A stretch of DNA of 64,000 bases from an uncultured Gammaproteobacteria bacterium (GTDB taxonomy: Bacteria; Pseudomonadota; Gammaproteobacteria; UBA9214): NCBI GenBank assembly GCA_963748215.1, contig CAVVHS010000006.1, positions 864,001 through 928,000 of the forward strand, written 5' to 3'. The position numbers were made by a program, and so were the translations under genes. Positions 3,965 through 20,388 of the stretch are shown one piece after another; the first letter of the stretch is position 1; each line of letters begins with the position of its first letter. Under the pieces are notes generated by a model. The model did no database searches. It was given only the letters and a program-made list of their open reading frames with translations, and was not told the DNA's origin.

Positions 3965-4251
3965 CTAGACAACACTACACATCGACTGCTTTTTTGACAA
4001 TAGTCGTATTGTTCTAGCTATCACCTGTCGAGGTCCCTGACGAATTGTTATTCTCACCGAAACAATCCGCTGCAATACGATAGATAAATCCCCATCACAC
4101 AGCGCATGGCACCGGTAGCGCACCTGGTTTTTGACCAGGCGCCGGGTAACGCATTACCCATTGTTTTCAGGAGAGCAGGGAAAATGGTAGAAAACAACAG
4201 CACGTAGAATAGACATGCAAAGTCTATTATAACTTGCTGTTATTATTGTCT

Positions 4252-4544
4252 TTGCACATCCGGTGAGATAACTCACCCCCTACGCGGCTCGCGCGGCGAC
4301 GTTCTCGGCAATGGCTCCCTGCATTGCTCTCGGCTCTGGCATGGCCCAGGCCAGTCTCTCGATCGCTGCGCGATCTCACCTGCTCCTGCTTCGCTCTACC
4401 GAGTCCATCCATGGACTCGTACCTCCTGCATGGCCCAGGCCAGCCTCTCGACCCGGGCTATGCCTGTAATAATGGCTCATCTTCTCCCTGCAGTCGTGCG
4501 CCGCCTTCGGCGGCTTGTCGAACTCCCGACTGCCTGGTTCGTAG
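4252..4544 (-). repeat. tRNA-Arg(ACG) 3'-half module A, T-loop split by about 250 bp of palindromic DNA
   Basis: Degenerate acceptor end ttgcacatccggtgagat at 4252; tcgaactcccgactgcctggttcgtag at 4518-4544. Confidence 0.8.
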
Positions 4545-4652
4545 TTAGCACTTTAGTCGCTGACTGTATGTATTTAATTGACATGCCTGAATTCTTACTC
4601 CGTTTTTTGGTTCACATCGTTTTCAGTTTACACATCAACCAGAAGCCCTGCG

Positions 4653-5018
4653 TCATCCGTCAAAAGCCAGCTTCATCTTCCTGGCTATCTTCTGCAAGCG
4701 CTGGTCGCGTGTCCAGATCAAGGCCATATCCGCTAATGTGGCAGATGCCAGAAGATGGGTATCGATATAACCGACACCCTGCCCCATCAGTTTATTGCTT
4801 TCGATAAAGTGCAACACCTCTTCATGCGAGGCCACTGGCGCCTGGGGCAAATCGTTGAGCAGCCTGATCACATCATCCCGCTTTTGCAGATTCCTACAGG
4901 CCAGCTCACCAATGACAAAGGTGTGCGCCAGTACCTGGCAGCTGTCGAGCAGATCTATAAGACGCTCGTCTCCAGTACGCAGATGATCGATCCAGACCGA
5001 GGTATCAACCAGGATCAT
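4653..5018 (-). CDS. vapC: VapC PIN-domain toxin
   Basis: MILVDTSVWIDHL..VIGELA..GYIDTHLLASA..WTRDQRL. Confidence 0.92.
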   Translation of the reverse strand: MILVDTSVWIDHLRTGDERLIDLLDSCQVLAHTFVIGELACRNLQKRDDVIRLLNDLPQAPVASHEEVLHFIESNKLMGQGVGYIDTHLLASATLADMALIWTRDQRLQKIARKMKLAFDG

Positions 5019-5215
5019 GCTGCCGGATCGGACTGCCGGCGGGGTATCGGTTTCAGTTGTGGTTCGCTGCCCCCCAGCCGGGCCAGTCGGCGGGCGCTCT
5101 CTCGTTCGATCAGGGCGCGCAATCCCTCACGCACCAGCGCGACTTTCTCACTTACCCCGGTAATCCGCTGGGCCTCGGCTAACAATTGGTCATCGATATT
5201 CAGTGTGGTTCTCAC
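5015..5215 (-). CDS. vapB: VapB antitoxin
   Basis: MRTTLNIDDQLLAEAQRITG; 4-nt overlap with vapC. Confidence 0.92.
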   Translation of the reverse strand: MRTTLNIDDQLLAEAQRITGVSEKVALVREGLRALIERESARRLARLGGSEPQLKPIPRRQSDPAA

Positions 5216-5249
5216 GGGCAGCTCCCGTCGTCAGAAGGCACGATTATTA

Positions 5250-5266
5250 ACATCATTTGATGATGT
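5250..5266. promoter_or_regulatory. Probable VapBC operator
   Basis: ACATCA-tttga-TGATGT inverted repeat just upstream of vapB. Confidence 0.5.
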
Positions 5267-5302
5267 ACTGGATGTACTGATTGTGCAAGGGTTGTCGCCT
5301 GA

Positions 5303-5946
5303 CCCGAGCCAGGCGAATTGCTAATTATCACCTGAAAACGGTGAGTTAGGCAGTCGTGTTCATGCTCGCAACCTTACCTACCCTGCTTTGCCATGAAGGA
5401 CCTGCTGATACTCCTCGCCCATCTATCGACTACCGTCGCCAAACTCCTGGGGCCTGGCGCTGCGAGGGCCATTGTCGCTGACAGCCTGCTCATGAAGCAG
5501 CAGCTTCTGGTCATTCATCGTTCGCGGTGACGCGCGCCCAATCTTTCGGCGCTTGATCTGTTTCTGTTTGGCTTCTGGACGCTGTTTCTCGATCCACACG
5601 TTATTCAGCGGGCTGCGGTGATTATTCGGCCATCAACGCTTTTGAAATTTCACGACCTGCTTAAAAATCGTAAGTACCGACTTCTGATTGGAACGATTCG
5701 TCGTGAATACCTGGATCACATCTTTTTCTGGAATGCGCACGACCTGGAGCGAAAACTTGAGGCTTTTAGGAAATACTACAACCAGAATCGGGTTCATCAA
5801 TCGCTAGCCGGTGATGCACCGGCGGTTGTTAGCGGCATTTCTCAAACTCAATGCGCAGATCTCAGCAACTATTCGTGGATGTCACACCGCAATGGACTTT
5901 TTCAAACCCAGGTCGCTGCATAAACAGGAATTCGCCAAGGACAGGG
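5303..5946 (+). mobile_element. Internally deleted integrase-core (DDE) transposase element, family A
   Basis: MKDLLILLAHL start at 5393 with stop/frameshift, fused to LIGTIRREYLDH..YYNQNRVHQSLAG; ends ggcgaatt / aattcgcc. Confidence 0.75.
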
Positions 5947-5996
5947 TCGTTTCCAGACATACCAGATTTAATCTGGCCTGATGTTCCTATACCAAG

Positions 5997-7421
5997 TCAG
6001 AAGCCGCCGCGGGTACGAAAGCCACCACCGCCGCGTCCCGTGCCAGCACCAAAGGTACCGCGCCGACGCGAGGACGGGTTACGCCATACCTTGCGCGAGC
6101 GGCCAAAACCGCCGCTGCCGAAATCCGGATTGGAGCGGGTCTGGCGATAGCGCTGGTTGCGCAGGATGGTACTCCACAGATCATCGGAACTGGCAACACC
6201 GCGCAGGAACTCGTTCAAGATTACGGCCAGCAATCCGGTATTGTCGAATTGGGAATTCATATCGTCGAAGCGTTCGCGCTTGAAGTTGCGCCTGACCCCT
6301 TGTAGTTCCTGCAGACGAGCCAAATGCCGCGTGTGCATCTGCTTGTGATGGTCCAGGGCATCCTGGTGCTGCCTCTTCTCGTTGTCTATATTGACGAGCT
6401 TTTGGATGATAAGGTCATCTTTCGTAGTCATCGTCATCTCGGCATGCTGGCGCAAGGATGAAAAACCTTCACGCTCGAACTCCGCTACCAGAGTGGTGAT
6501 GGCTTTGTTGAAGTACGGATCCTCTGCGGCAGCAAATCGTGCCTGTTCCTGCAATAGCTGGTTGAAGGTCTCTTCTTCCTGCTGGATGCGTTGATCGATC
6601 AGCCGGAGCGCCTGTTCGACCTGCTCCACTGCCGCGCGCAGCGCAGGGATGCCGTCTGCATCCGCAACCGCCGCTTCCATCGCTTCCAGGGCGGCAAAGG
6701 CGGCATCGGCGTCGCTGCGTACCCGCTGTGCATGTTCGCGCAGTCGGACCGGAATCTCGAGCAACATGGCGTAGTTGGGGCGGGCCGCGTGATAATCACA
6801 CAATCGCGCCACCTTCCTGTCGAGAAAGCGGGTCAGGGGCCCGGCCGAATAGCGGGATGTTCCGAAGTGTCTTTTCCACAGATACATGAACAGCGAATCC
6901 GCCTCATAGGGCCCGCCTTTCTCGACCCGGTCTGCCTCTGCCTGTGCCGTCTTTGCTTCCGCCTGTCCGGCAATATCGTCTGCCGCATGCGCGGCAGCGA
7001 GCAGCTCCTTATGGGCCGGGTCCTCCTCCAGGCGCTGCTGTGTCGTGGCTTCCACCGCGTCGAGTCGTTCCGCGGCCTGGTCGGCCTGCTGACGCGAGGT
7101 CTCACGTTCGGTATCCAGATCATCCTGTGCCTGTTGTGATGCCTCGATGCGTGACTGGAGTGTCTGCAACGCCTGCCCGCGTTCGGCCAGCAACGCCTGC
7201 ACGCGCCGATCGGCTGCATCGAGGCCTGTGATGATCTCCCCCCTGATCAGTTGATCAAGCCGCATTTCGGCCAGTTGCCGGTAGCCGTCCGCTTCTTCCT
7301 GCCTCAGGTGCACCAGCTTCCTGCTGGTAATTTGAACCTGGGTATCGAGCTCACGGACCTGCTGGCGCACCTGGCGCAGGCCCTGGTCGATTGAGGTGAG
7401 TGTTTGCGGGCCGCTCCACAT
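5997..7421 (-). CDS. Long coiled-coil protein with Gly-rich tail
   Basis: 474 aa, A/E/Q/R-rich heptads, ends GGGGFRTRGGF; third gene of operon. Confidence 0.8.
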   Translation of the reverse strand: MWSGPQTLTSIDQGLRQVRQQVRELDTQVQITSRKLVHLRQEEADGYRQLAEMRLDQLIRGEIITGLDAADRRVQALLAERGQALQTLQSRIEASQQAQDDLDTERETSRQQADQAAERLDAVEATTQQRLEEDPAHKELLAAAHAADDIAGQAEAKTAQAEADRVEKGGPYEADSLFMYLWKRHFGTSRYSAGPLTRFLDRKVARLCDYHAARPNYAMLLEIPVRLREHAQRVRSDADAAFAALEAMEAAVADADGIPALRAAVEQVEQALRLIDQRIQQEEETFNQLLQEQARFAAAEDPYFNKAITTLVAEFEREGFSSLRQHAEMTMTTKDDLIIQKLVNIDNEKRQHQDALDHHKQMHTRHLARLQELQGVRRNFKRERFDDMNSQFDNTGLLAVILNEFLRGVASSDDLWSTILRNQRYRQTRSNPDFGSGGFGRSRKVWRNPSSRRRGTFGAGTGRGGGGFRTRGGF

Positions 7422-7429
7422 GGTCCGGT

Positions 7430-8344
7430 CTACCAGGCGGTGATCGAGGCGCCGGTCGTCGGCATGGCATATTCGGGTGTGAGCTGGCCACGCCGCTTCA
7501 CGCCAAAGTCGCGCTTCTGGATTATTCCGTCGTCCTTTTTATCGGCGGCGATTTGTTGATACAGCTGCTCGCTTACCCGCAGCGCCCATTTGCTTACCTT
7601 ATAGGTCTTTCCATCCTCTTCATTGCGGACAGGTAACGTCAGCGTGCTGCCATCCGCAATCACCGCCTCGACGATAATGTAGTAGTTACGGGCATTGGGG
7701 TTGAGTTCTGGCATACGCCATACACCACTGGGTTCATCCGGCCGGGATACGATGCGCACGATGTATTCCTGTTCAAGCTGTGCACGCAGGTCCTTCAGTG
7801 AGGCAATTGCTTTCTCGGCTGCTTCGGTATCGTTTTCATGCAAGGCCACCTTGCCCTGTTTAAGGTACTGTTCCGCGCGTTCCCTTGCTTCGGGGAGCGT
7901 GGTTTGTTCGACAATGGCCTGTCGCTGTGTGGCCAGTTCGTCAGGGAGTGTTGCCAGACGGCGTTGTTGCGGGCCGCTGATCAGCGTTGCGTATACAATC
8001 ATTACCGCAGTGATGAGCGCCAGCATCACCAGCAGCGCCTTGCCCCAGGTGCCGCGGCTGATGTAGATGCGTGCGAGGATTACGCGTAAGCCCGGTTCGG
8101 GCGGCGTGTAGACAAAGCGCTCCTCATCCAGGGCCGCAACACCTTCGGCCAGCACATGATCGGGAACATCGATACCCTGGGCGGCATAGATCTCGCGCAG
8201 CCGCTTGATCAGTGTTTGCTCGCGCGCTTCCGTATTCAGTTCACGCTCGACCAGCAGCTGGCGATGCCGTAGTGTATCGACCACATCCATGGCCTGCATG
8301 ACTTCATCGAGTGGATGCCTGGTTGCCGTATTTGTCCCGGCCAT
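7430..8344 (-). CDS. DUF6384-family membrane protein
   Basis: LDEVMQAMDVVDTLRH..LREIYAAQGIDVPD..EGVAAL.EERFVY, one TM, NYYIIVEA. Confidence 0.8.
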   Translation of the reverse strand: MAGTNTATRHPLDEVMQAMDVVDTLRHRQLLVERELNTEAREQTLIKRLREIYAAQGIDVPDHVLAEGVAALDEERFVYTPPEPGLRVILARIYISRGTWGKALLVMLALITAVMIVYATLISGPQQRRLATLPDELATQRQAIVEQTTLPEARERAEQYLKQGKVALHENDTEAAEKAIASLKDLRAQLEQEYIVRIVSRPDEPSGVWRMPELNPNARNYYIIVEAVIADGSTLTLPVRNEEDGKTYKVSKWALRVSEQLYQQIAADKKDDGIIQKRDFGVKRRGQLTPEYAMPTTGASITAW

Positions 8345-8374
8345 GGTTCAGGGCTGCCTGTTGTCCGGGTTCTG

Positions 8375-9550
8375 TTATGACTGCCCTGGCAGCGTCAGCG
8401 GGAATGCCTTGCCTTCTTCGACCAGCCGTGCAAGGCGCTTCTTGCCTTCTTCCACCGCATCGCGGATTTCTTCAGCGTTCTGCGTGCTCAGCTTGCGCAT
8501 TTCCTCGATTATGATGCGCGAGTGTTCCTGGTAACTGACCACCGAATCAACGAGGCGTTTGACAGCATCGGCGCGAATAGTCGGGCCGTAGCCGGCCTTG
8601 ATGGCCTCTTCATGCACCTTGCCGCCGATATCGGCCAGGTCTTCAAGGCTCTTGTTGACACCCTCTTTCATCGCGTTCAGGGTCTCGGTGCTCTCGTGCA
8701 ATCCGTGCAGGCCGGTGAACGACGCACTCAACGCGGTTAATACGGTTTCATTGGTGCCGAAGAAGCTTATCGACTGCTGGTACACGCGCTCCTTGGCATT
8801 GGTGGTCTGGATGAGCCGTGCCATGACAACCTCCGAGGTGTGGTAGCTCACCGTCAGGTTATCGGAGAGATCCTTGCTGATCTGGTAACGCTGATCGGCA
8901 GTCTGAACATCACGCATACGTTCATCGCGCGTGAGTTCCAGGCGTGCGCGTTCGGCAGCATCTTCACCTGTATACTCGCCCAATGTGTTCATCGCAGCCT
9001 GCAGGTCGGCCTTGGCTATATCCAGCTTGCCCTGGGCGGTTTTCAGGACTTCCAGCGCCAGTACTTCGGACTCTTTCAGGGCGCCGCGGAAATCCTGGTA
9101 GGCGGTGAGAATCAGGTGTTCGCGCTGGATCTGATCTTTGGAATCATCAGCCACGTCCAGATACACCTTTTTGATATTATCGAAGCGGTCGGAGATATCG
9201 CCGCGGCTCACCTTCATCCAGACATTCTGTACACGTTCCCAGGTATTGACCTTGCCATCTTCTAATTGCTCGACCATCCCCTTGGCATCTTCGCGAATGC
9301 TGTTAAATGATTTGATTATTTCTTCATAGCGTTCGCCGATTTGCATGGCGCTGACCTGTTCGCGGACCACTTCATTGAATAGCGAGGCCTGGTTCAGTGT
9401 CATGGCGATTGCCACGACCTTCTCTTCATCCAGATCGGTAATCTGATTCAGTAATGCGATAACGGGGGCTTCCTCGTTACCCTCTGGCATCAGGTTGAGA
9501 TCACGCAGCGAGTTGAGCGCCTTGTCGAGATATTTTAAAGGTGTACTCAT
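8375..9550 (-). CDS. Helical protein of the 'cell surface protein' / TelA (toxic anion resistance)-like type
   Basis: 391 aa all-helical; FNEVVREQV, WMKVSRGDISDRF, GYGPTIRADAVKRLVDSVV; family assignment from recall. Confidence 0.65.
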   Translation of the reverse strand: MSTPLKYLDKALNSLRDLNLMPEGNEEAPVIALLNQITDLDEEKVVAIAMTLNQASLFNEVVREQVSAMQIGERYEEIIKSFNSIREDAKGMVEQLEDGKVNTWERVQNVWMKVSRGDISDRFDNIKKVYLDVADDSKDQIQREHLILTAYQDFRGALKESEVLALEVLKTAQGKLDIAKADLQAAMNTLGEYTGEDAAERARLELTRDERMRDVQTADQRYQISKDLSDNLTVSYHTSEVVMARLIQTTNAKERVYQQSISFFGTNETVLTALSASFTGLHGLHESTETLNAMKEGVNKSLEDLADIGGKVHEEAIKAGYGPTIRADAVKRLVDSVVSYQEHSRIIIEEMRKLSTQNAEEIRDAVEEGKKRLARLVEEGKAFPLTLPGQS

Positions 9551-9668
9551 GGGGTATTCCTCACCTGTAGTGGATTGCAGACTTGAGGGTGACCGTGCGG
9601 GTAACCGGGGTAAGCTGATGCATTAGTATAATACCTCCTGGCAGGCGTGTACTTATTCGAATATTCAG

Positions 9669-10461
9669 CCTGTGGGTGGCGAATTCCTGGTTGTCACCTG
9701 AAAACGTTCACCTAGACCGTGTGGGTGACTCAATCATAGTTATCATCTTACAAACGCTGACTTAGACTGGCGTTCAAACGCCAGATGTCAATTGATTCAG
9801 CACCTCTATAAAAAGGGAAACCTGATTCTATTGGACTTCGAACATCTATTGGACAGATAGCAGTTTCAAGGCTCAGCTACGTATTAACAAACCAAACACT
9901 TAATGACTGCTGGCCAGTCGATCACGTGGTTTTTAACCAGGTAGTCGGGTTAGCACTTAATCCTTTGTTTTCGTGAGAACTGGAAAAAGGAAGGATAAAG
10001 ACAGCAAGTAGAAAAGACCTGCAAAATCTTCGCTAACTTGCTGCTTTATAATATGGCGCGCCCGGAGAGATTACTCGGCCAAATTCTACTCGGGGCACTA
10101 CTGCCCCTCGCGCCCGTGCGGGGCCGCCGGCAAAGCCGGCGTTCTCGGCAATTGCTCCCTGCATTGCTCTACCTCGTGCATGGCCCAGGCCAGCCTCTCG
10201 ACCGGTTTCCGGTCTCACCTACTCCCTGCAGTCGTGCGCCGCTGCGCGGCTCGTCGAACTCGACCAATTAGAAACGTCGGGAGTTCGAATGCCTGGTTCG
10301 TAGTGTTATCCCTCAACCTCTCCAACCGTCTAATTTACTTAACAAATCAAGACTTTTCGCCTATATGGCGTTTAATGCGTTGATTTGCGGTTGGTTGGAC
10401 ACTGTTATTGGACAGCAAACCCTCCCCAAGACCATGTGATTATGAATTCGCCATGCACACC
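9669..10461. mobile_element. Family-A IS ends facing each other without a transposase, enclosing tRNA-Arg module B
   Basis: Left cctgtgggtggcgaattc..tcacctgaaaacg (as at 5303-5340); right gaattcgccatgcacac. Confidence 0.55.
10054..10303 (-). repeat. tRNA-Arg(ACG) 3'-half module B
   Basis: tggcgcgcccggagagatt-actc...gtcgggagttcgaat-gcctggttcgtag. Confidence 0.85.
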
Positions 10462-10588
10462 CAACAAACGAGAAATTCCGGACATCTGCGCCATTTTTGC
10501 CACTACCGCAGTAGAATCGGCCTAAGCTGGAAAGACTCCTAGAATACGGACCACGCTGTTACCGAACAGCATCGAATCTACGCAGGAT

Positions 10589-11296
10589 ATGGGAACAGAA
10601 AAGCTACCGACAAAATCCAGTCGTTCAGAGGTCGAGGCGTTTCTGCGCGAGGCGGCATCCACACCCGTTATAAAGTCGTCGACCCAGTTGGGACGGCTGA
10701 TGTTCGCGCTGGATGCCACCGCGAGTCGCGGGCCCACCTGGGACCATGCCTGCCATTTACAGGCCCAGATGTTTGCAGAGACAGCGAACCTTGGCGGCCT
10801 GGAGATCCAACTGTGCTATTACCGCGGATTCAACGAATTCAGGACTACCGGCTGGCTAACTAACACCGTCGATCTCCAGCACCGCATGGCGGCCGTACGA
10901 TGCCTCGGCGGACAGACGCAGATACACAAGGTGCTTCAACATGCGATCAAGGAGACCAGGCAAAAAAAGGTCGACGCGCTGGTATTTGTGGGTGACTGCA
11001 TGGAAGAAGACATTGACGAACTTTGCCAGATTGCGGGTGAACTGGGCATTCATAATGTCCCAGTATTCTTGTTTCACGAGGGCAGCGACCCCGTCGCCGA
11101 ACATGCTTTCAGACAGATCGCGAGACTGACAAAGGGAGTGTATTGCCCGTTTGACGCAGGTAGCGCCGAGCAGCTGCGTGACCTGCTGAGCGCGGTGGCC
11201 GTCTATGCGGCGGGCGGGCGCCGGGCGCTGGAACATTTCAGCAAGACGCGGGGCGAGAAGGTAAAGCTGCTTACCCGGCAGATTAGTCAGGGTTAG
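10589..11296 (+). CDS. VWA-domain protein
   Basis: MIDAS-like FALDATASR, LGGQTQI, VFVGDCMEE. Confidence 0.85.
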   Translation: MGTEKLPTKSSRSEVEAFLREAASTPVIKSSTQLGRLMFALDATASRGPTWDHACHLQAQMFAETANLGGLEIQLCYYRGFNEFRTTGWLTNTVDLQHRMAAVRCLGGQTQIHKVLQHAIKETRQKKVDALVFVGDCMEEDIDELCQIAGELGIHNVPVFLFHEGSDPVAEHAFRQIARLTKGVYCPFDAGSAEQLRDLLSAVAVYAAGGRRALEHFSKTRGEKVKLLTRQISQG

Positions 11297-11301
11297 TCAT
11301 A

Positions 11302-12145: not shown

Positions 12146-12590
12146 GTTGCGTGACGTCCAAAATCGCTCCCGGCGATTTTGTCGAACTGTGGAGCCCGAC
12201 TCAGCCCTCGCACAAGCCAAACACAAAACCGGCCTGGAGGCCGGTTTTGTGTTTGGCTTGCCCGGAGAGATTACTCGGCCAAATTCTACTCGGGGCATTA
12301 CTGCCCCTCGCGCCCCTGCGGGGCCGCCGGCAAAGCCGGCGTTCTCGGCAATTGCTCCCTGCATTGCTCTACCTCCTGCATGGCCCAGGCCAGCCTCTCG
12401 ACCGGTTTCCGGTCTCACCTCCTCCCTGCAGTCGTGCGCCGCTGCGCGGCTCGTCGAACTCAACTGAATAGATACGTCGGGAGTTCGAATACCTGCCAGT
12501 ACTTCAAACACACAGAAGCCCGCGCAAGGCGGGCTTCTGTGTGTTTGGCGCGCCCGGAGAGATTCGAACTCCCGACCGCCTGGTTCGCAG
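12146..12590 (-). repeat. tRNA-Arg(ACG) module C: partial unit, expanded unit, hairpin and unexpanded 45-bp 3' half (12546-12590)
   Basis: tggcgcgcccggagagattcgaactcccgaccgcctggttcgcag; hairpins at 12219-12254 and 12506-12546. Confidence 0.88.
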
Positions 12591-12750
12591 CCCTAAATCA
12601 AGGGCTATATCATATTATACAGTCACTTGCGGCGTTTGCCCCTCTCATGCCGCAGTTGACTTATCAATCACTTACGGTTGAGCGTACTTTCAAGTTAGCA
12701 CAAATCTGGCACACTCCACGCAGCAGAATTCCGGTTATTCTCTCCAGAAA

Positions 12751-12798
12751 TTGTATAGACGTCCAATATACAATAATGTATATTGATCATCTATACAA
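12751..12798. promoter_or_regulatory. Operator-like palindrome of TA pair copy 1
   Basis: TTGTATAGA..CAATATACA..TGTATATTG..TCTATACAA nested inverted repeat. Confidence 0.65.
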
Positions 12799-12813
12799 CT
12801 GGAGACTATTCCG

Positions 12814-13092
12814 ATGACTGAAACACAGAACCGTGCAGCACCGATTAATATCCGCGCCCGCCCAACTCAGCGTAACCTGATCGACAAGGCCGCTGCGATG
12901 CTCAACAAGAATCGCTCGGACTTCATGCTGGAAGCGGCCTGCCGTGAGGCCGAGAACGTCTTGCTCGACCAGCGCCTTTTCCTGGTCGACGACAAGGCCT
13001 GGCAGGCATTCGAGACACTCATTGATGCGCCGGTCAAAGACAACCCCGCGCTGCGCAAACTGTTACATGACAAGGCCCCATGGGAGAAGTAA
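12814..13092 (+). CDS. DUF1778 RHH antitoxin (TacA/AtaR-like), copy 1
   Basis: INIRA..QRNLIDKAAA..NRSDFMLEAACREAENVLLDQRLF..KAPWE. Confidence 0.92.
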   Translation: MTETQNRAAPINIRARPTQRNLIDKAAAMLNKNRSDFMLEAACREAENVLLDQRLFLVDDKAWQAFETLIDAPVKDNPALRKLLHDKAPWEK

Positions 13093-13574
13093 CGGCGCCG
13101 GAGCCGATTACAGCGACTCACCTCATTGAGTCGTTCTCATGCGGTGTCCCGGTGCTGGATGACTGGCTTAAACGCCGCGCGCTCAAGAACGAAGTTTCCG
13201 GCGCATCCCGCACCTTCGTCATTTGCCAGGATTCGCAGGTCATCGGTTATTACACGCTGGCCACTGGCAGTATCGAACATCGCAATACACCAGGGAAAAT
13301 ACGCCGCAACATGCCGAATCCGATACCGGTGATGGTGATCGGAAGACTTGCCGTCGATCAGCGGTGGCAGCAGGCAGGCCTGGGTCGCGGCCTGCTGAAA
13401 GATGCCCTGTTGCGCACCCTGTCGGTTTCGAAACAGGCAGGCATCCGGGCATTACTGGTGCATACTCTCTCGGAAGATGCAAAGCACTTCTACACCCGTA
13501 GCGGGTTTATCGAATCTCCGCTTGATCCAATGACCTTGATTATTGCACTGCAGGATGCTGCACATTGCCTGTAG
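13080..13574 (+). CDS. GNAT acetyltransferase toxin (TacT/AtaT-like), copy 1
   Basis: FSCGVPVLDDWL, RRNMPNPIPVMVIGRLAVD, QQAGLGRGLLKDA. Confidence 0.92.
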   Translation: MGEVTAPEPITATHLIESFSCGVPVLDDWLKRRALKNEVSGASRTFVICQDSQVIGYYTLATGSIEHRNTPGKIRRNMPNPIPVMVIGRLAVDQRWQQAGLGRGLLKDALLRTLSVSKQAGIRALLVHTLSEDAKHFYTRSGFIESPLDPMTLIIALQDAAHCL

Positions 13575-13809
13575 CGGCGCGCACGGATAAGACCGTGGAA
13601 ACCGGTCGAACAATGTGGAACGCTATGCTGCGACAAGCTGTGATACGGGTAAAGCCCAACTATTTCGCATTACCCGAAGTCGAATGTGAACATTACCAGC
13701 TGCAGTTGAATGCAGATGATAAAGTCAATACTACAGAGGAGCAGGCCGCGGTACTGGACAGATTTGAGGATAGTCTGTATCTGTTATTGAATAGCATGCT
13801 TTTGCCCTT

Positions 13810-14193
13810 ATGGCATTGACCAAGGAACAATCTTTACGCGAGGCAATCACCCGCGAAGAAGCTCAACTCGCTGAGATTGCACACAGACAGGATGAGAGCC
13901 GAAAACGGTTGGCAGCACCTAAGGAAGAGCTTGCCACCGTGGAATCACCGCATGTAGCTCCTTTCGCCTCTGCAATACACCCTGGCGCCGACGTACCAAC
14001 CACCGCCGAAGGAAAAATCTCATTATTCCGTCAACTATTCCGCGGCCGGGATGATGTATTTCCATTGCTCTGGGTAAGTACAAAGACCGGTCGGAAAGGG
14101 TATTCACCAGCCTGCAGCAATGAATGGGTACGTGGCGTCTGCGAAAAACCCCGTGTGAAAGAGAGCATTTGTCTATTTAAACCGATATTTTAG
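13810..14193 (+). pseudogene. Truncated N-terminus of a TOTE-conflict primase / helicase-type protein
   Basis: KISLFRQLFRGRDDVFP..TGRKGYSPACSNEWVRGVCEKPRVK, then homology appears to stop. Confidence 0.65.
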
Positions 14194-14249
14194 AATCAGA
14201 GTTAAATCTGAATGTCTCCTTTGTACGAATATGCTCACTTTTAGAGATT

Positions 14250-14390
14250 AACTGCCAATGTCTTCGATTACATCGAAATGTTCTACAATCGTACCCGTCG
14301 GCACAGCCATCTTGGCGGGGTCAGTCCGGAGGCATTTGAAAGTGCCTCAAAATGAGGCTGGGAAGTGTCTACTGTATCGGGGGTAGTCCA
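14250..14390 (+). mobile_element. IS3-family 3' remnant
   Basis: [27 protein letters not shown] followed by IR-like gtgtctactgtatcgggggtagtcca. Confidence 0.75.
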
Positions 14391-14753
14391 TTACGCAATA
14401 AGACACTCGTAGGGGATCTTCAAACCTTCATGCAATTTCCGGATCATTGTTAGCGTCAAACTTCGCTTTTTACTCAGCACCTCAGACACACGCCCACTTG
14501 TTCCGATATACGGCTCCAGATCTTTGCGCGACAAGCTGTTCTGCTCCATCAAGAACTTGATCGCTTCTATTGGGTCCGAGGCAGGAATTGCATAGTGCTC
14601 ATCTTCATATTTCTCAACGATCAGCATCAAGACATCCAGCTCATCGCCTCTTGGTGTATTGGGTTTTGCACCCCACAGCTCATCGATACGCTTTAACGCA
14701 CGGTTCAGCTCACGGTCATTTTTAACAGGCTTCAGTTTCATAATAAACCTCAA
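14391..14753 (-). CDS. higA: HigA antitoxin (HTH)
   Basis: DELDVLMLIVEKYEDEH..DPIEAIKFLMEQ..SGRVSEVLSKKRSLTLTMIRKLH. Confidence 0.9.
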   Translation of the reverse strand: MRFIMKLKPVKNDRELNRALKRIDELWGAKPNTPRGDELDVLMLIVEKYEDEHYAIPASDPIEAIKFLMEQNSLSRKDLEPYIGTSGRVSEVLSKKRSLTLTMIRKLHEGLKIPYECLIA

Positions 14754-15061
14754 ATATGTTCAATATCCTCGATCTCGTCATATTCCTTATGGGTCCCCAC
14801 AAATCGAATAAGCATTCCATGCCGAACATAATCCATAAGCACAACAATTCTGTATTTGTTACCGCATAGGTTAAATACAACACGGTTGTTCTTTAAGATG
14901 CTCGCATTACGCAAGTCAGCCTTTAATTTGTGTGGCGTATTCCATTTTGCAGTTGCACAGTAGTTGTACCACTCCGTCATTTGCTTCTTTGCATCTCTGT
15001 ATTTCGGGCTACTCTCCCAAAATTTCCGCAGCATGGACTTTGCGATCACCCTCATCAACAT
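14750..15061 (-). CDS. higB: HigB toxin
   Basis: MRVIAKSMLRKFWE..NASILKNNRVVFNLCGNKYR..IRFVGTHKEYD. Confidence 0.9.
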   Translation of the reverse strand: MLMRVIAKSMLRKFWESSPKYRDAKKQMTEWYNYCATAKWNTPHKLKADLRNASILKNNRVVFNLCGNKYRIVVLMDYVRHGMLIRFVGTHKEYDEIEDIEHI

Positions 15062-15070
15062 ACCCTATCA

Positions 15071-15112
15071 TGCTCCCATCATGGGAGCAATCAGAAATAT
15101 CCCAATATGGGA
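15071..15112. promoter_or_regulatory. Two HigA-type operator palindromes
   Basis: TGCTCCCA-tca-TGGGAGCA and TCCCA-ata-TGGGA upstream of higB. Confidence 0.6.
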
Positions 15113-15433
15113 GGTTTTTACTTCAGACCGGTGACGTCATGCAACAATGGGAACAGGGAAACCACGACTGTATCAGTACCTGAAGCGGGTTTTCACCACA
15201 CTGCCAGCTGAATCTCCACCCAGACGTGCTAACTTCAGCAACTCATTTTCCGGATCACATTGACGCCGATTTTTTGGAACCCTGTCAGTCACTTGATCAC
15301 GGATGCCGTATACACAGGGAAGGTATGCAATGACAGCACCTGTCCAATTAAATGGATGTTTTTAGCTCTATTGGACAGTCACAAAAAAACCGGCCTAGCA
15401 GAACGCTATAATCAGTTGATTTAAATAGTAAAA

Positions 15434-15610
15434 TGGCGCGCCCGGAGAGATTACTCGGGGTTTTGCCCCTCGCCCCTGCGGGGCCGCCGGCAAAGCCGGC
15501 GTTCTGCGCTCCCTGCGGTCGCTGGTCGAACTCAACTGAATAGATACGTCGGGAGTTCGAACCTCTGATGTACCGATAAACCAAAAGACCCGCGCAAGGC
15601 GGGTCTTTTG
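15434..15610 (-). repeat. tRNA-Arg(ACG) module D, cut by an IS481 remnant
   Basis: Near-identical to unit 20160-20343, including the hairpin aaaagacccgcgcaaggcgggtctttt. Confidence 0.88.
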
Positions 15611-15732
15611 TGTAGTACCTGAGAGATAGCATACAGACTATACCGGAGACATGGTTTACACATAAGGGCATTGGGGGGGATCCCGGATGCCATGGAAAGA
15701 GTGTAAACCGATGGATGAACGCCTAAAGTTTG
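15611..15732 (+). mobile_element. IS481-family left-end remnant
   Basis: tgtagt..ccggagacatggtttaca end followed by MPWKECKPMDERLKFV. Confidence 0.7.
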
Positions 15733-15898
15733 TAGCCCCAATCAACGGGATATATTACTCTAACTTACAGTCACTTACGGCGCCTGCCCATCCAATGCCG
15801 CAGTTGACTTATCAATCAGTTACAGCTCACTGTGCATTCGAGTTAGCACAAATCTGGCACACTCCACGTAGTGTAATTCCGGTTATTCTCTCCAGAAA

Positions 15899-15946
15899 TT
15901 GTATAGACCATCGATATACAGTGATGTATATTGATTATCTATACAA
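15899..15946. promoter_or_regulatory. Operator-like palindrome of TA pair copy 2
   Basis: TTGTATAGA...TCTATACAA, homologous to 12751-12798. Confidence 0.65.
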
Positions 15947-15961
15947 CAGGAGACTACCCCA

Positions 15962-16240
15962 ATGGCTGAAACACAGAACCGCGCGGCACCGATTAATATC
16001 CGTGCCCGCGCGACGCAGCGCAACCTGATTGATAAGGCCGCTGCGATACTCAACAAGAATCGCTCGGACTTCATGCTGGAAGCGGCCTGCCGTGAGGCCG
16101 AGAACGTCTTGCTCGACCAGCGCCTCTTCCTGGTCGACGACAAGGCTCGGCAGGCATTCGAGGCACTCATCGACGCGCCGGTCAAAGACAACCCCGCGCT
16201 GCGCAAACTGTTACATGACAAGGCGCCATGGGAGAAGTAA
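15962..16240 (+). CDS. DUF1778 antitoxin, copy 2
   Basis: Near-identical to 12814-13092. Confidence 0.92.
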   Translation: MAETQNRAAPINIRARATQRNLIDKAAAILNKNRSDFMLEAACREAENVLLDQRLFLVDDKARQAFEALIDAPVKDNPALRKLLHDKAPWEK

Positions 16241-16722
16241 CGGCGCCGGAGCCAATTACCGAGACTCACCTCACTGAATCATTCTCGTGCGGCATCCCGG
16301 TGCTGGATGAATGGCTCAAACGCCGCGCACTCAAGAATGAAGTTTCCGGCGCATCCCGCACCTTCGTCATTTGCCAGGATTCGCAGGTCATCGGTTATTA
16401 CACGCTGGCCACTGGAAGTATCGAACATCGCAATGCTCCAGGAAAAATACACCGCAACATGCCGAATCCGATACCGGTGATGGTGCTCGGAAGACTCGCC
16501 GTCGATCAGCGGTGGCAGCAGGCAGGACTGGGGCGGGGTCTGCTGAAAGATGCCCTGTTACGCACCCTGTCGGTGTCGAAACAGGCAGGCATTCGGGCGT
16601 TACTGGTGCATACGCTCTCGGAAGATGCAAAGCGCTTCTACACCCGTAGCGGGTTTATCGAATCTCCACTTGACCCCATGACCTTGGTGATTGCGTTGCA
16701 GGATGCTGCACATTGCCTGTAG
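16228..16722 (+). CDS. GNAT toxin, copy 2
   Basis: Near-identical to 13080-13574. Confidence 0.92.
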   Translation: MGEVTAPEPITETHLTESFSCGIPVLDEWLKRRALKNEVSGASRTFVICQDSQVIGYYTLATGSIEHRNAPGKIHRNMPNPIPVMVLGRLAVDQRWQQAGLGRGLLKDALLRTLSVSKQAGIRALLVHTLSEDAKRFYTRSGFIESPLDPMTLVIALQDAAHCL

Positions 16723-16880
16723 CGGCGCACATGGATAAGACCGTGGAAACCTGTCGAATAATGTGGAACGCTATGCTGCGACAAGCTGTGATACGGGTAA
16801 AGCCCTACTATTTTGCATTACCTGTGCATGGCGAATTACGAGTTTGTACCATGAAAGAGGCGGGCCTTCTTGTTTATATC

Positions 16881-16989
16881 GCGCGCCCGGAGAGATTACT
16901 CGGCCAAATTCTTCTCGGGGCATTACTGCCCCTCGCACCCTGCGGGCCGCCGCCTTCGGTGGCTTGTCGAACTCAGCTGAATAGATACG
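16881..16989 (-). repeat. tRNA-Arg(ACG) module E (truncated)
   Basis: gcgcgcccggagagattactcggcc...tcgaactcagctgaatagatacg. Confidence 0.8.
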
Positions 16990-17038
16990 AGAATAAGGTG
17001 ACGGAGGCGTTTTATTCCTTCACGCATGAAAAGAAATA

Positions 17039-17088
17039 GTGTCAGAGCACATTTTCTCATTATATTCGCGGAAAATGTGCTCTGACAC
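17039..17088. repeat. 18-bp perfect inverted repeat (REP/STIR-like)
   Basis: gtgtcagagcacattttc ... gaaaatgtgctctgacac; related half copy at 17809. Confidence 0.8.
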
Positions 17089-17099
17089 CAATTAGCAGA

Positions 17100-17663
17100 T
17101 CAGAAATCGTAACGTCCGCTGATGTATGGCCCGTCCAGCTCCTGGTCGGAGGCAGCGCCTACCGCCAGGGACATCTGCGGCGCTGGATAGAAGCGTACAC
17201 CGGCCTTGATACCCAGCTCGTCGTCATCCCAGAAGTCGTTGGAGATGTACGAGATGTCACCTTCCAGGTGCAGGTTCTGCTGCAGCGCATAGCGGAGGCC
17301 GCCGCGCAGCAGCACGCCGGTGTCGTCATTGTTGCCGAACCCGAAGTCCGCATCGGCATTGATCAGCTGCACGCTGCCGACAAAATCCAACTGGTTGTTT
17401 AGCGGGGTGTGAAACTGCACACCGATGGTGAAGATGTCCAGATCGCCGTCTGCTAATGGACCGCGGTCGAAATCCATCGCGTAATAGGAACCGATAATGC
17501 CGAAGCCCTGGTTAAGATCGACGGCACCACCGATGAACAGGCCGTCGCCATCGCCCCGACCCTCGCCATAGCCGATTTCCACGTAGGTGTATCTGAAATC
17601 CCCGGCCATGGCCGGTGCGGTTGCCAGCAGTATCGCGCCGGCCAGAAGTGCCTTCTTGTTCAT
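17100..17663 (-). CDS. Outer-membrane beta-barrel protein
   Basis: Signal peptide, FRYTYVEIGY, alternating beta strands, C-terminal GRYDF. Confidence 0.85.
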   Translation of the reverse strand: MNKKALLAGAILLATAPAMAGDFRYTYVEIGYGEGRGDGDGLFIGGAVDLNQGFGIIGSYYAMDFDRGPLADGDLDIFTIGVQFHTPLNNQLDFVGSVQLINADADFGFGNNDDTGVLLRGGLRYALQQNLHLEGDISYISNDFWDDDELGIKAGVRFYPAPQMSLAVGAASDQELDGPYISGRYDF

Positions 17664-17775
17664 GTGCGTCCCTCTACGAATGGTCTGAAATGCGCGGTTT
17701 GATTAGTGTACCTTAAACCAGCAGCCGCGTCGTTTGCGAACAGGTGTGCAAAGAATAAACACTTTTATGCAAGAA

Positions 17776-17950
17776 TAAAGGGGACGGAGGAGTTATTTTC
17801 CAACTAATGGTGTCAGCACATTTTCTCCTTGATCGCGAAAAACCGACTCAAAGGGGACGGAGGATATAAAGTGGGGATTACTAAAGGGGACGGATGAGTT
17901 TTATTCATTCTGGGATTTCGCTTGAGAATATAACTCCTCCGTCCCCTATT
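17776..17950. repeat. Cluster of AAAGGGGACGGA repeats (three direct, one inverted)
   Basis: Copies at 17776, 17850, 17882 and inverted at 17927-17950; related copies at 16994, 19452, 19652 and inverted at 19771-19793. Confidence 0.8.
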
Positions 17951-18036
17951 ACTCAATCCGCAGTTCGAGTAAAAAACCGAACAAGCCAGCTGTCATTGCA
18001 AAATTCTGAACACAGGCGATTCAATAGAGATTTGTA

Positions 18037-18744
18037 ATGGACAAACAAGCCCCACAATTCAATCCGGTATTGTTGTGGTTACGTTTTGTCATTCGCATGA
18101 GTTTATTTGCTCTCGCCCTGATGTGGCCGGCAGGCACCTGGCACTGGCGGGAAGCCTGGGTGGTGGTAGGACTGTGGTCACTCTTTGGCCTGGTCATGCA
18201 ACATTATCTGATGCACAACGACCCCGCCTTGTTAGCAGAGCGATTAAAGCTGGTTCCGATACACAAGGATCAGAAGACTTGGGACAAGGCACTCATGGCT
18301 ATATTTTTTATAGCAGGGATTTCACTTTATATCGTTCCCGGTTTTGATGTCGTGCGTTATGGCTGGAGTGAGCCATTACCCTTGTGGTTGAAGATAGTGG
18401 CCTTCACCATACACATTCCCTGTTTTATCGGTTTGGGATGGGTGATGCGTGAAAATACGTATCTGGCACAGGTTGTAAAAATTGACGAACAACGAGGTCA
18501 TCAGGTGATTACGACAGGTCCTTATGCATTGGTACGGCATCCAATGTATGCCATCGTTATCATTTTACTGTTCGCAGTGCCCGTAGCACTTGGATCACGC
18601 TATGCCCTGATCCTCTCCGTATTTTTAACACTATTATTGATTATACGAACATATCTTGAAGATCGGACTTTGCATGATGAACTTGATGGGTATGCAGCGT
18701 ATGCCAAACAAACCCCTTACAGGCTGATTCCTGGAATATGGTAA
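18037..18744 (+). CDS. Isoprenylcysteine carboxyl methyltransferase (ICMT/PEMT) family membrane protein
   Basis: HQVITTGPYALVRHPMY, RTYLEDRTL..ELDGYAAY..YRLIPGIW. Confidence 0.9.
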   Translation: MDKQAPQFNPVLLWLRFVIRMSLFALALMWPAGTWHWREAWVVVGLWSLFGLVMQHYLMHNDPALLAERLKLVPIHKDQKTWDKALMAIFFIAGISLYIVPGFDVVRYGWSEPLPLWLKIVAFTIHIPCFIGLGWVMRENTYLAQVVKIDEQRGHQVITTGPYALVRHPMYAIVIILLFAVPVALGSRYALILSVFLTLLLIIRTYLEDRTLHDELDGYAAYAKQTPYRLIPGIW

Positions 18745-18746
18745 AC

Positions 18747-18773
18747 CAATCAATGGGGTCAGACTCGATTGAT
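18747..18773 (+). repeat. 27-bp direct repeat, copy 1
   Basis: caatcaatggggtcagactcgattgat. Confidence 0.85.
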
Positions 18774-18791
18774 TACAGAAGGCAGACTGCC

Positions 18792-19433
18792 ATGAAGAGA
18801 ACTTACTCGACGGCCAGGCACCCTCCCCTGCGTACCCTGCCAGGACTGGCTGTCATGGCACTCGTCGTGCTGCCGTTGCTCGCCTCCTGCGACGCCGTCT
18901 GCAAGGCTGTCTGCGAAACATCCCAACCCGCCGGGGAAATCGGCCAACCCAGGGATATCGGCTATGCCGTTCTGAAAAAGCTGCTCGACGACGAGCAGCA
19001 TGTCAAGACGCTCCGCATCGTCAAGTCCATCATCACCTTAAGCAAGGCCAGTGATCCGACAGCCGAGCTGATCGATGACATCGCCACGGTTTCCGCCCGG
19101 GGACTGGACGACCTGGAGACGCTGGTCGCACTCAGGCCCGCAATCAACCTGGACACGTCCAGCCAGGAGCAGCTCGGCAGCGACATTTTTAACGCATTGC
19201 GCGTGGCTACCGCCAGGGAACTGATCACCGCGACGGGTGACGACTTCGAACTCAGCCTCGTGCTCAGCCAGATCCAGGCGCTGCGCCTGATCGGCCAGTT
19301 ACTCAAGGAAATCCAGGAACTGGACCCGAACCCGAAGCGACAGGCCTGGCTTGCGCATCTGGCCAGTGACTACGAAACTCTTTACAGTCGTGCCGTTGCA
19401 CGCCTGTCAATCAATGGGGCCAGACTCGATTGA
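18792..19433 (+). CDS. Hypothetical lipoprotein-like protein
   Basis: LLASC lipobox-like motif; last residues and stop come from repeat copy 2. Confidence 0.7.
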   Translation: MKRTYSTARHPPLRTLPGLAVMALVVLPLLASCDAVCKAVCETSQPAGEIGQPRDIGYAVLKKLLDDEQHVKTLRIVKSIITLSKASDPTAELIDDIATVSARGLDDLETLVALRPAINLDTSSQEQLGSDIFNALRVATARELITATGDDFELSLVLSQIQALRLIGQLLKEIQELDPNPKRQAWLAHLASDYETLYSRAVARLSINGARLD

Positions 19434-19434
19434 T
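19408..19434 (+). repeat. 27-bp direct repeat, copy 2 (one mismatch)
   Basis: caatcaatggggccagactcgattgat. Confidence 0.85.
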
Positions 19435-19465
19435 CTGACAACCTTGACCGGAATAAAGGGGACGG

Positions 19466-19650
19466 CGTATAGGAAGCATAACCCACGTATTTCGCGAGAA
19501 TCCACCCGGGAACCGGCCTTCTCACCGGCATCCCTGCCCCTGAATCCCCGCACTCCAGCCGCCTGCAGGCCGCTCCCGGCCCTCTGCCACCGGCTTCCGC
19601 TGGCCTCCTCCTTTTTGTAACAGACATGGCCCGGCCCACCCACCGGGTAT
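19466..19650 (-). mobile_element. IS91/ISCR oriIS-end remnant
   Basis: Reverse complement GTGGGTTATGCTTCCTATACG resembles the ISCR oriIS end; about 40 bp shared with 42351-42389; inner boundary uncertain. Confidence 0.6.
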
Positions 19651-19799
19651 TCAGGGGACGGTTACTAATTTCCACTCAATGCCCCGAACATTTACCTGTC
19701 TCGACTGAGTGCTTGTAAACGGACATCTGTTGCCGCATGGAAAATATTCCTCTGCGCCCGTAAAACTCAGATAAATAGGTATACTGTCCCCTGACTCTT

Positions 19800-20388
19800 C
19801 GCCGCCATCGCGGCTCGTCGAACGCAACCGATTAGATAAGTCGGGAGTTCGAATACCATTCCAGACCTCAAACAAACAAAAGCCCGCACAAGGCGGGGCT
19901 CGGTTGTTTTGTGCGCGACCAGAACGAGCGTAGCGAGTTCAGGAAGTACTTGATGAAACGCCGCAGGCGGTTCTGAAGTACCCGGAGAGATTACTCGGGG
20001 CTGCGCCCCTCGCCCTGCGGGCCGCCGCCGCTGCGCGTCGACGTTCTGCGCTCCCTGCGGTCGCTGGTCGAACTCAACTGAATAGACACGTCGGGAGTTC
20101 GAACCTCTGGTAAACCGATAAACCAAAAGACCCGCGCAAGGCGGGTCTTTTGGTTTATATGGCGCGCCCGGAGAGATTACTCGGGGCTTTGCCCCTCGCC
20201 CCTGCGGGGCCGCCGGCAAAGCCGGCGTTCTGCGCTCCCTGCGGTCGCTGGTCGAACTCAACTGAATAGATACGTCGGGAGTTCGAACCTCTGATGTACC
20301 GATAAACCAAAAGACCCGCGCAAGGCGGGTCTTTTGGTTTATATGGCGCGCCCGGAGAGATTCGAACTCCCGACCGCCTGGTTCGTAG
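19800..20388 (-). repeat. Tandem tRNA-Arg units of about 185 bp (F, G, H) ending in an unexpanded 45-bp 3' half (20344-20388)
   Basis: Reverse complement CTACGAACCAGGCGGTCGGGAGTTCGAATCTCTCCGGGCGCGCCA; units start at about 19974, 20160 and 20344. Confidence 0.92.

Follow-up and report, generated by a model that had tools for sequence, protein, structure and literature searches.

The closest described parallel to the locus reported here, a tandem array of displaced tRNA-Arg(ACG) halves in the genome of an uncultured gammaproteobacterium, is the set of ssrA islands in Dehalococcoides. Published passages on these islands (PMC3146451) describe over a dozen direct repeats of the tDNA 3′ end within ~100 kb downstream, which separate islands with strain-specific cargo, as the tRNA halves do here, and discuss 15 islands without an integration module as possible cis-mobilizable elements. 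Whereas the same passages give a serine integrase, a 20-bp repeat and a crossover in the T-loop for Dehalococcoides, we find a tyrosine recombinase, halves of 45 nt and a start in the anticodon loop; RtT-type units, islets that carry nothing but a toxin-antitoxin (TA) pair, and an array detached from its tRNA are found only here. The stretch of DNA under study (64,000 nucleotides, hereafter the window) corresponds to C6:864001-928000 of genome G000, a metagenome-type assembly of 3.52 Mb in 9 contigs (C1-C9); positions given without a contig are those of the window. A first-pass annotation, made from the letters alone, had proposed that positions 4121-20388 hold an integron-like array of cassettes that uses tRNA halves as recombination sites. 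We read the region instead as the distal part of a tandem accretion array at a tRNA-Arg(ACG) integration hot spot, with a probability of roughly 0.62. Hot spots of this type are already known; the present one is unusually long and is separated from its tRNA by what appears to be a large inversion.

Tandem elements at the 3′ end of a target gene are also described for Streptococcus, where the cis-mobilizable elements (CIMEs) and the accretion connected with ICESt1 and ICESt3, according to passages of PMC5704250, have lost their integration and transfer genes and keep attL and attR. The streptococcal CIMEs form pairs or triplets next to a functional integrative and conjugative element (ICE) or integrative and mobilizable element (IME), and their cis-mobilisation was shown experimentally (same passages), whereas the present array has at least 10 sites and no functional partner in the genome. 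The tDNA islands of Islander (passages of PMC4383910) are alike in that the tRNA is restored and the end of the island is recognised by a displaced 3′ fragment of like orientation, and the anticodon-centred attP class is the commoner one among them (2083 of 3919 islands). Islander arrays need an integrase for each member, and arrays of three or more members amount to 4 cases among the 3919 islands; the members of the Arg array have no integrase of their own, and because Islander demands one per member, the array would not be called.

With chromosomal integrons that carry TA cassettes (PMC13108822), the locus shares a long accessory array with TA pairs, which in integrons are thought to protect the array from loss. 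The likeness ends there, and the integron-like array of the first-pass annotation does not hold up: unlike in integrons, there is no intI, attI or attC, neither the array nor its flanks contain a tyrosine recombinase gene, and the blocks, which hold two to six genes on both strands, with insertion sequence (IS) debris and a truncated PrimPol gene among them, are neither single promoterless open reading frames (ORFs) nor co-oriented. The boundaries are also heterogeneous, comprising two classes of tRNA halves and RtT-type units that are whole, truncated or collapsed.

These units have their own counterpart in the tyrT repeats of E. coli, whose period is 178 bp. Like the units of our locus, those of RtT RNA/tyrT (RF00391) and of AaHKsRNA22 (RF02902) end in the last ~19 nt of the tRNA, including the CCA; alignments show that they share the same short junction motif and GC-rich hairpins upstream, and they follow tRNA genes, frequently as tandem copies. 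Passages of PMC4986893 describe the release of RtT RNAs from the transcripts of tRNA operons, and PMC7657543 mentions, in one passage, a covarying pair within RtT RNA. In contrast to E. coli, the units found here are those of Arg, Pro, Lys, Ser, Glu and Gln tRNAs in an uncultured genus of Gammaproteobacteria, and they also occupy displaced halves in island arrays.

Displaced tRNA-Arg halves and their integrase

Searched with the intact gene (BLAST), fragments of tRNA-Arg(ACG) span C6:807087-884388, or ~77 kb with at least 10 fragment sites instead of the 16 kb of the first-pass annotation, and the array reaches 57 kb left of the window. The 19-nt 3′ end of the tRNA (nt 59-77, in + strand reading) has 10 forward and 0 reverse copies genome-wide, compared with 0 and 0 for the same stretch read backwards as a control; nine of the ten copies fall inside C6:807087-884362, and the tenth is the intact gene. 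In the window, all fragments lie on the minus strand, and one is found at every position where the first-pass annotation had placed a tRNA-Arg 3′-half module: at 4518-4544 (nt 33-59), at 10054-10072 (nt 59-77) together with a remnant of nt 33-45 at 10291-10303, at 12260-12272, at 12546-12592 (nt 31-77), at 15434-15452 (nt 59-77), at 16881-16897 (nt 59-75), at 20160-20178 and at 20344-20388 (nt 33-77). The last is an uninterrupted half, 45/45 identical to the intact gene and with what we term a class A junction; that at 12546-12592 is likewise uninterrupted, with a class B junction. Identity begins at nt 33, in the anticodon loop, for the halves ending at 4544, 10303 and 20388, and at nt 31, with one mismatch within the loop, for the one ending at 12592, in line with the earlier statement that the surviving halves end at the anticodon loop. 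Same-strand 3′ fragments with starts at nt 29-33 fall at the canonical crossover sublocation of island arrays, and support the interpretation of the halves as true site-specific integration scars of the anticodon-loop type.

ARAGORN and Rfam agree with the earlier observation that the window contains no tRNA-Arg; its three tRNAs are Pro-GGG, Val-GAC and Asn-GTT. The sole intact tRNA-Arg(ACG) of G000 is at C5:c2666-2742, and the integrase that the first-pass annotation had suggested looking for does adjoin it: a tyrosine-integrase gene at C5:1540-2647 ends 19 nt from the tRNA 3′ end. This gene is 91-93% identical to an intact gene of 367 aa in the relative G017, and is frameshifted by two single-base insertions, neither of them in a long homopolymer. 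Against PF00589 (cut-off 27.1), the G017 and G049 homologues reach 60.6 and 61.2 bits; they, too, end 19 nt from tRNA-Arg. PF00589 has no match in C6:807-890 kb, and the earlier description of the array as integrase-free is accurate in so far as neither PF00589 nor tblastn finds an intact integrase in or near it.

Remnants of the integrase, 37 to 58 codons long, are found in G000 at C6:48932, C6:57893, C6:890401 and C8:211573. The third of these is in the window, where a 3′ remnant of 37 codons (26401-26511, + strand) beside tRNA-Pro(GGG) matches residues 322-358 of the tRNA-Arg integrase family with 76% identity (tblastn). The fourth has an intact counterpart in a relative, where, at locus L047 (G024:C16:46001-66000), the integrase gene abuts tRNA-Met(CAT), and G000 keeps the remnant together with a tRNA-Met half (C8:211573-211809). 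In a genus set of 37 genomes (relatives are coded G0xx and loci in them L0xx), the family is present at E≤1e-10 in only 8, and three of the genes appear intact, those beside tRNA-Arg in G017 and G049 and that beside tRNA-Met in G024.

A tRNA-Arg is matched in all 37 genomes of this set, and partial Arg(ACG) fragments starting at nt 29-33 are present, among the matches listed, in at least 20 of them. While in G000 the Arg array is headed by tRNA-Pro(GGG), the cognate tRNA stands at the head in G008, G019 and G051. The native layout is seen in G008, where tRNA-Ser(GCT) and tRNA-Arg are followed by two 45/45 halves 3.7 and 15.9 kb downstream, with CDF and RND metal efflux genes as cargo and no integrase. 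In G019, tRNA-Arg, one trailer unit, an arm of a repeat family that we call D10, a higBA pair and a half make up an islet of 1.3 kb whose only cargo is higBA, 94% identical to window positions 14391-15137, and G051 has an islet of 1 kb at tRNA-Arg. In G048, three halves stand at a contig end, and the intact tRNA is on another contig with integrase fragments that contain stop codons and a C-terminal ORF of 73 aa. A 75% identical higBA is found at tRNA-Pro(GGG) in G008 and G016; in the latter its islet, 1.0 kb long, is flanked by a tRNA-Pro fragment (nt 38-77) and by the intact gene, and retains only the last ~40 nt of the integrase gene. D10 arms occur in 9 of the 37 genomes, mostly directly beside tRNA-Arg or its halves. 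The comparison of cargo order in relatives, proposed earlier as a check, shows that the content varies and that the breakpoints are at the halves.

RtT-type units within the modules

The modules of the window comprise two layers, displaced tRNA halves and RtT-type tRNA-trailer units (Rfam AaHKsRNA22/RtT-like), and most of them are not att cores but such trailer units, which make up the greater part of the module length and form a family that also stands behind intact tRNAs without cargo. Read in the sense of the tRNA, a full unit consists of a terminator hairpin, a second hairpin in which an inverted copy of the T-arm is combined with the T-arm's first half, an insert, and nt 59-77; the insert is GC-rich, contains four short hairpins and lies exactly between nt 58 and nt 59 of the T-loop. 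Three units score 40.1-41.5 bits with AaHKsRNA22 (gathering threshold 39.8) and a fourth 33.4; with RtT they reach 19.5-26.1 bits, below its gathering threshold of 45, with the full-length model aligned, including the junction before the tRNA 3′ end. As in RtT, the units are downstream of a tRNA gene, each ending with the local tRNA's own 3′ end.

All modules of the window are on the minus strand. In M1 (4262-4544), the half with nt 33-59 (4518-4544) is joined to a T-loop insert of hairpin/REP-like type and the 3′ end is degenerate, and M2 (10054-10303) combines nt 59-77, a hairpin insert with REP-like units, an inverted T-arm piece and the remnant of nt 33-45. M3 (12254-12592) joins an RtT-type unit (12254-12545; AaHKsRNA22 40.1 bits at 12275-12364) to the half with nt 31-77. 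M4 (15434-15610) is a complete RtT-type unit, with 41.5 bits for AaHKsRNA22 and a sub-threshold 19.5 for RtT, M5 (16881-16990) is truncated at its 5′ side and ends in nt 59-75, and M6 (19800-19911) is truncated at its 3′ side, leaving the terminator, the inverted T-arm hairpin and the start of the insert. M7 and M8 (19975-20343) are two RtT-type units in tandem with a period of 184 nt (AaHKsRNA22 40.5 bits; RtT 26.1 and 22.5 bits). At the level of sequence, the modules include a 178-nt repeat family with copies at 15433, 19975 and 20159, of which the first and third are 99% identical, and a 242-nt repeat pair at 10054 and 12254.

The REP-like repeat inside the modules at 4262, 10054 and 12254 has copies on all nine contigs and many in relatives; its units of ~50-120 nt are found at 4297-4475, 10137-10225 and 12337-12425 and at dozens of sites elsewhere. 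G000 has six matches to Y1/RAYT transposases (Y1_Tnp, IS200/RAYT-like), five of them over the cut-off; these were considered as a source of the T-loop insert and set aside, as nothing links the two.

Tandem units of the same build stand behind the intact tRNA-Ser(CGA), Ser(GGA), Glu(TTC) and Arg(CCG) of G000, and further ones behind Ser(GCT) in G017 and Gln(TTG) in G024. A census of G000 found extra copies of the last 19 nt for 17 of its 43 tRNA genes. Within the window, tRNA-Val(GAC) (34928-35004, minus strand) has such a copy ~200 nt downstream (34725-34743), preceded by a hairpin-rich stretch, and thereby an RtT-type unit. An exact scan for the junction of the tRNA-Arg unit, with one genome per species, retrieved 42 stretches or loci from diverse Gammaproteobacteria (Ectothiorhodospiraceae, Chromatiales, Sedimenticola, Marinobacterium, Arenicella and many unnamed gammaproteobacterial metagenome-assembled genomes), and an intact tRNA-Arg lies within 1.5 kb in 17 of them. 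An analysis anchored on the conserved flanks parsed 39 of 49 units, and in 30 of the 39 the last hairpin forms at least three pairs directly between these flanks; its stem takes at least 15 different sequences, which argues that its structure is conserved and not its sequence. MAFFT followed by RNAalifold, applied to 37 and to 17 units, missed the hairpins, whose variable length leads to misalignment.

The halves nearest to the head of an array are uninterrupted (Arg at 20344 and 12546; Pro at C6:13141 and C6:17057), and the more distal ones carry the four-hairpin insert at nt 58/59 (Arg at C6:807087, C6:836610, near 859 kb of C6 and at 4262-4544; Pro at C6:41023 and C6:57612; Lys in 5 of 5). 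An Arg half and its trailer unit can collapse to the insert-bearing form if a deletion runs from one copy of the T-arm's first half to the other. The intact tRNA-Lys has no trailer, so that its insert-bearing halves would need gene conversion, between modules that share arms, or active insertion.

Exchanged arrays and cargo

The intact tRNA-Pro(GGG) of the window (26561-26637, minus strand; C6:c890561-890637) is now the head of the orphaned Arg array, and eight 3′ fragments of tRNA-Pro(GGG) lie on the + strand at C6:13141-74445, ~0.8 Mb from the intact gene, with three integrase remnants among them. The 6.2 kb gap between the Arg fragments and tRNA-Pro holds a distal island arm, two direct IS481-like copies and an integrase remnant. 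In G049, homologues of the start of C6 (618-12887) and of the start of C5 (from 1051) are at most 1.7 kb apart and next to tRNA-Arg, and the island beside the intact tRNA-Arg of G000 probably continues into the start of C6, to end at a tRNA-Pro half. There would then be two chimaeric junction islands, and each array is headed by the tRNA of the other. This fits a reciprocal inversion of ~0.87 Mb between convergent Arg and Pro arrays that would have swapped their distal parts; a precedent for tRNA fragments as rearrangement markers is given in a passage of PMC9897764. An IS-mediated inversion was rejected: the two IS481-like copies are direct repeats and both are on the tRNA-Pro side. Since none is found at the other junction, recombination between related islands is preferred.

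A third array, at tRNA-Lys(TTT), occupies 65 kb (C9:310571-375700) and has five modules, made of anticodon-loop halves with the four-hairpin insert at nt 58/59, and conserved arms; PF00589 has no match on contig C9. One of its modules (C9:375400-375620) is chimaeric, with nt 32-58 of a tRNA-Met(CAT)-like half, the hairpin insert and nt 59-76 of tRNA-Lys. In the window itself, tRNA-Asn(GTT) (39296-39371) has a repeat of its 3′ part, from the anticodon loop, 5.6 kb downstream (45018-45062), and the islet between the repeats (39296-45062) encodes a DUF429 protein, a Lon substrate-binding domain, a dioxygenase and others, and no integrase.

The G+C content between 4 and 27 kb of the window is 0.42-0.60, compared with ~0.60 for the contigs. 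To its left, the array carries a capsule cluster, a polyketide synthase (PKS) of 2553 aa, glycosyltransferases, an RND efflux operon and IS debris; the most distal Arg islet (C6:807600-836311) combines a group-2-like capsule export and synthesis cluster with this type I PKS, whose domain order is KS-AT-DH-MT-ER-KR-ACP.

For the window, defence systems were sought with PADLOC and cargo families with Pfam and NCBIfam profiles, which confirmed most of the discrete cargo named by the first-pass annotation (vapBC, J-domain, DUF1778/GNAT twice, higBA, and the outer-membrane protein (OMP) with ICMT). Two of its labels fell: the supposed TelA-like protein matches DUF6384, with two flanking proteins without a family, and nothing has a profile match to VWA. 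Of putative attL and attR sites, the core repeats are present, and arms are recognisable only at some boundaries (D10 at 4144 and 9948, P at 20389); other boundaries are truncated.

From left to right, the first D10 arm (4144-4239), conserved and non-coding, abuts the tRNA 3′-end side of the islet and is followed by vapC (PIN) and vapB (4653-5215, minus strand; PF01850 36 bits, PF09957 68 bits), by an IS fragment (rve_3; 5311-5943) from a repeat with several copies per genome in the genus, and by a three-gene operon (5997-9550, minus strand) for proteins of 474, 304 and 391 aa, the second of which is DUF6384 (PF19911, 413.8 bits). This operon block is 88% identical in G017, G015 and G012, with no tRNA fragments beside those copies; it has no NCBIfam or PADLOC family. 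Beyond the second D10 arm (9948-10043), two co-directional genes (10589-12033, + strand) encode a protein of 235 aa without a family and one of 243 aa with a C-terminal J-domain (PF00226, 32.7 bits), a pair that receives no defence-system assignment from PADLOC. A tacA/tacT-like pair of a DUF1778 antitoxin and a GNAT toxin (12814-13574, + strand; PF08681 85.6 bits) follows, which, its half included, is ~80% identical to locus L022 of G013, and then a truncated AEP/PrimPol gene of 127 aa (13810-14193, + strand; PF22548 57.9 bits over profile positions 2-53 of 230; PADLOC PrimPol 48.6 bits), which is debris of a replication module. The higB/higA (HTH) pair (14391-15061, minus strand; PF09907 94.2 bits) and a second tacA/tacT-like pair (15962-16722, + strand), a paralogue of the first (repeat D3, 86%), complete the TA cargo, which is enriched here and counts four pairs in 16 kb when adjacent small genes and their domains are taken as the test (PIN with VapB, HigB_toxin with HTH, and TacA1 with GNAT twice). 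The last block (17100-19433) contains an OMP β-barrel gene (minus strand), an ICMT-family methyltransferase and a protein of 231 aa (both + strand).

On the side of tRNA-Pro, the distal island arm P (20389-20510), which has a short doubled motif common to integrase 3′ ends, matches arms of the tRNA-Lys array on C9 with 75-82% identity along 65-68 nt. Next to it are IS481-like copy A (20514-23030), split by an IS3-family insertion at 21102-22394 (orfA at 21198-21503, rve at 21823-22329), and copy B (25172-26398, minus strand), which truncates the integrase gene beside tRNA-Pro.

Explanations for the array

In the accretion reading, elements with a tyrosine integrase of 367 aa, encoded by a gene whose end abuts the 3′ end of the tRNA, would integrate by a crossover in the anticodon loop, each arrival rebuilding the tRNA with its own 3′ half and pushing the old half, together with its trailer, downstream. 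The older elements, now without integrase and replication genes, which they may have lost or never have carried, would have become short, CIME-like islets between halves, of which TA-bearing stubs may have been kept preferentially. RtT-type units would belong to tRNA loci generally and would have entered displaced halves by deletion or gene conversion; finally, the inversion of ~0.87 Mb would have put the Arg array behind tRNA-Pro, leaving the intact tRNA-Arg and its twice-frameshifted integrase elsewhere. Signs of decay are seen in the integrase remnants, the truncated PrimPol gene (13810-14193) and the IS fragments, and decay of the integrase in the Arg array itself is suggested because of the remnants in other arrays and in relatives.

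Public reads bear on the joints of the array. Five runs contain 66-77% of the sampled words of window positions 11500-21400, and four runs were compared as short contigs, three of those five and a further one (X7) with 0.23 of the sampled words. Pieces of at least 99% identity fill 30 of 30 bins in three of the four runs, and the cargo blocks are covered by pieces that show 0-5 differences. A single joint has good support: runs X1-X3 each have one contig that passes over the IS3-family element at 21102-22394, and this indicates that the insertion is polymorphic in natural populations. Joints between modules (12310 to 20011; 4547 to 19467) have 25-48 nt on their shorter side and lie in repeats, and speak neither for nor against excision; loose contig ends at 20388 and 12592 that run into a tRNA 5′ half are probably the intact tRNA-Arg genes of the same samples.

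Several observations weigh against accretion with decay. The blocks 15611-16880 and 16991-19799 are bounded by RtT-type units only, and an anticodon-loop crossover does not explain them. No contig among the four runs bridges a module, and the presumed join between C5 and C6 derives from synteny and is not assembled. In the Arg array (C6:807-884 kb), tblastn at E<0.01 finds no integrase remnant. Islets with D10 arms, at 13 loci in 8 relatives, have no integrase within 1.5 kb (48 of 75 ORFs scanned, ORFs of at least 55 aa), and at 5 of the 13 the arm has a TA pair as its neighbour (HigB-type with HTH, Gp49 with HTH_37, or AbiEi); such islets would fit natively non-autonomous elements as well as decay. 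In the tRNA-Lys array, moreover, the islet arms are conserved over ~100-130 nt, which could reflect selection for recombination. For remnants and natively non-autonomous elements alike, TA pairs stand at islet ends and are most often what remains.

The best-surviving alternative, which we nevertheless regard as rather unlikely, takes up the idea of the first-pass annotation in a CIME-like form: the islets would be active, non-autonomous cassettes with functional attL and attR, stabilised by TA pairs and moved at tRNA-Arg, -Pro, -Lys and -Met by an integrase acting in trans, supplied by the minority of elements or cells that carry one. The integrase-free D10 islets, with their TA pairs beside the arm, and the conserved arms of the tRNA-Lys array are as it would predict, as is the occurrence of the same type of higBA at tRNA-Arg in G019 and at tRNA-Pro in G008 and G016, accompanied at every site by the matching tRNA repeats; for several displaced halves, identity to the tRNA remains complete (45/45), and the integrase family, in 8 of 37 genomes, is rarer than the halves. 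However, G000 lacks an intact integrase of the cognate type and its array no longer adjoins the tRNA, boundaries in the window are heterogeneous and partly truncated, IS and PrimPol debris is present, and the homology between the higBA of G000 and G019 stops at the genes, excluding the arms. The reads support no excision junction either, their joints having at most 48 nt on the shorter side, in repeats.

A more far-reaching combination, which we consider doubtful, would have the islets at tRNA-Arg, -Pro, -Lys, -Asn and -Met form a working cassette system, with arm-TA/cargo-arm units moved in trans by the minority-carried 367-aa integrase, and at the same time have the four-hairpin insert be an active element, or a conversion tract, specific to the T-loop of displaced halves, where it would mark or lock old att sites. 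If true, it would account for the long-known tyrT repeats of E. coli as well.

Homologous recombination as the main force, with near-identical RtT units and arms serving as portable homology for Campbell-style or double crossovers without an integrase, appears improbable to us. It would account for the blocks bounded by units alone, without anticodon-loop halves; 99% identical units of 178 nt do flank 4.5 kb (15433-15610 and 20159-20336), the 242-nt pair is 95% identical, one C9 module combines parts of tRNA-Met and tRNA-Lys, and the Arg and Pro arrays appear to have exchanged their distal parts. Yet the halves start exactly at nt 29-33 in many genomes and at several tRNAs, which is the signature of a site-specific crossover, and the cognate integrase abuts the tRNA. 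An assembly artefact, by which repeats of up to 340 nt would have been mis-joined and the block order or the tRNA-Pro junction would be unreal, is very improbable: the assembly is of metagenome type with 9 contigs, no contig of the four runs bridges a module, and C5 of G000 and C26 of G017 both start within ~190 nt of the same homologous position, but similar arrays and islets are found in independent assemblies of relatives, pieces of at least 99% identity cover all bins in three of the four runs, and the reciprocity of the two chimaeric junction islands is what a true inversion would produce.

Read as an accretion array, the locus illustrates the extent that accretion at a single tRNA can reach, with at least 10 fragment sites spread across 77 kb; together with the similar arrays at tRNA-Pro and tRNA-Lys, it makes up ~200 kb of a 3.5 Mb genome that has no working integrase of the Arg family, and tools that require an integrase per island would miss such arrays. 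It would also be a concrete case of TA-bearing stubs outlasting the remainder of their islands, and of two island arrays acting as substrates for an inversion of megabase scale. For the field of tRNAs and small RNAs, RtT-type units whose hairpins covary occur widely downstream of tRNA genes in uncultured Gammaproteobacteria, and recur at a fixed T-loop position within displaced tRNA halves.

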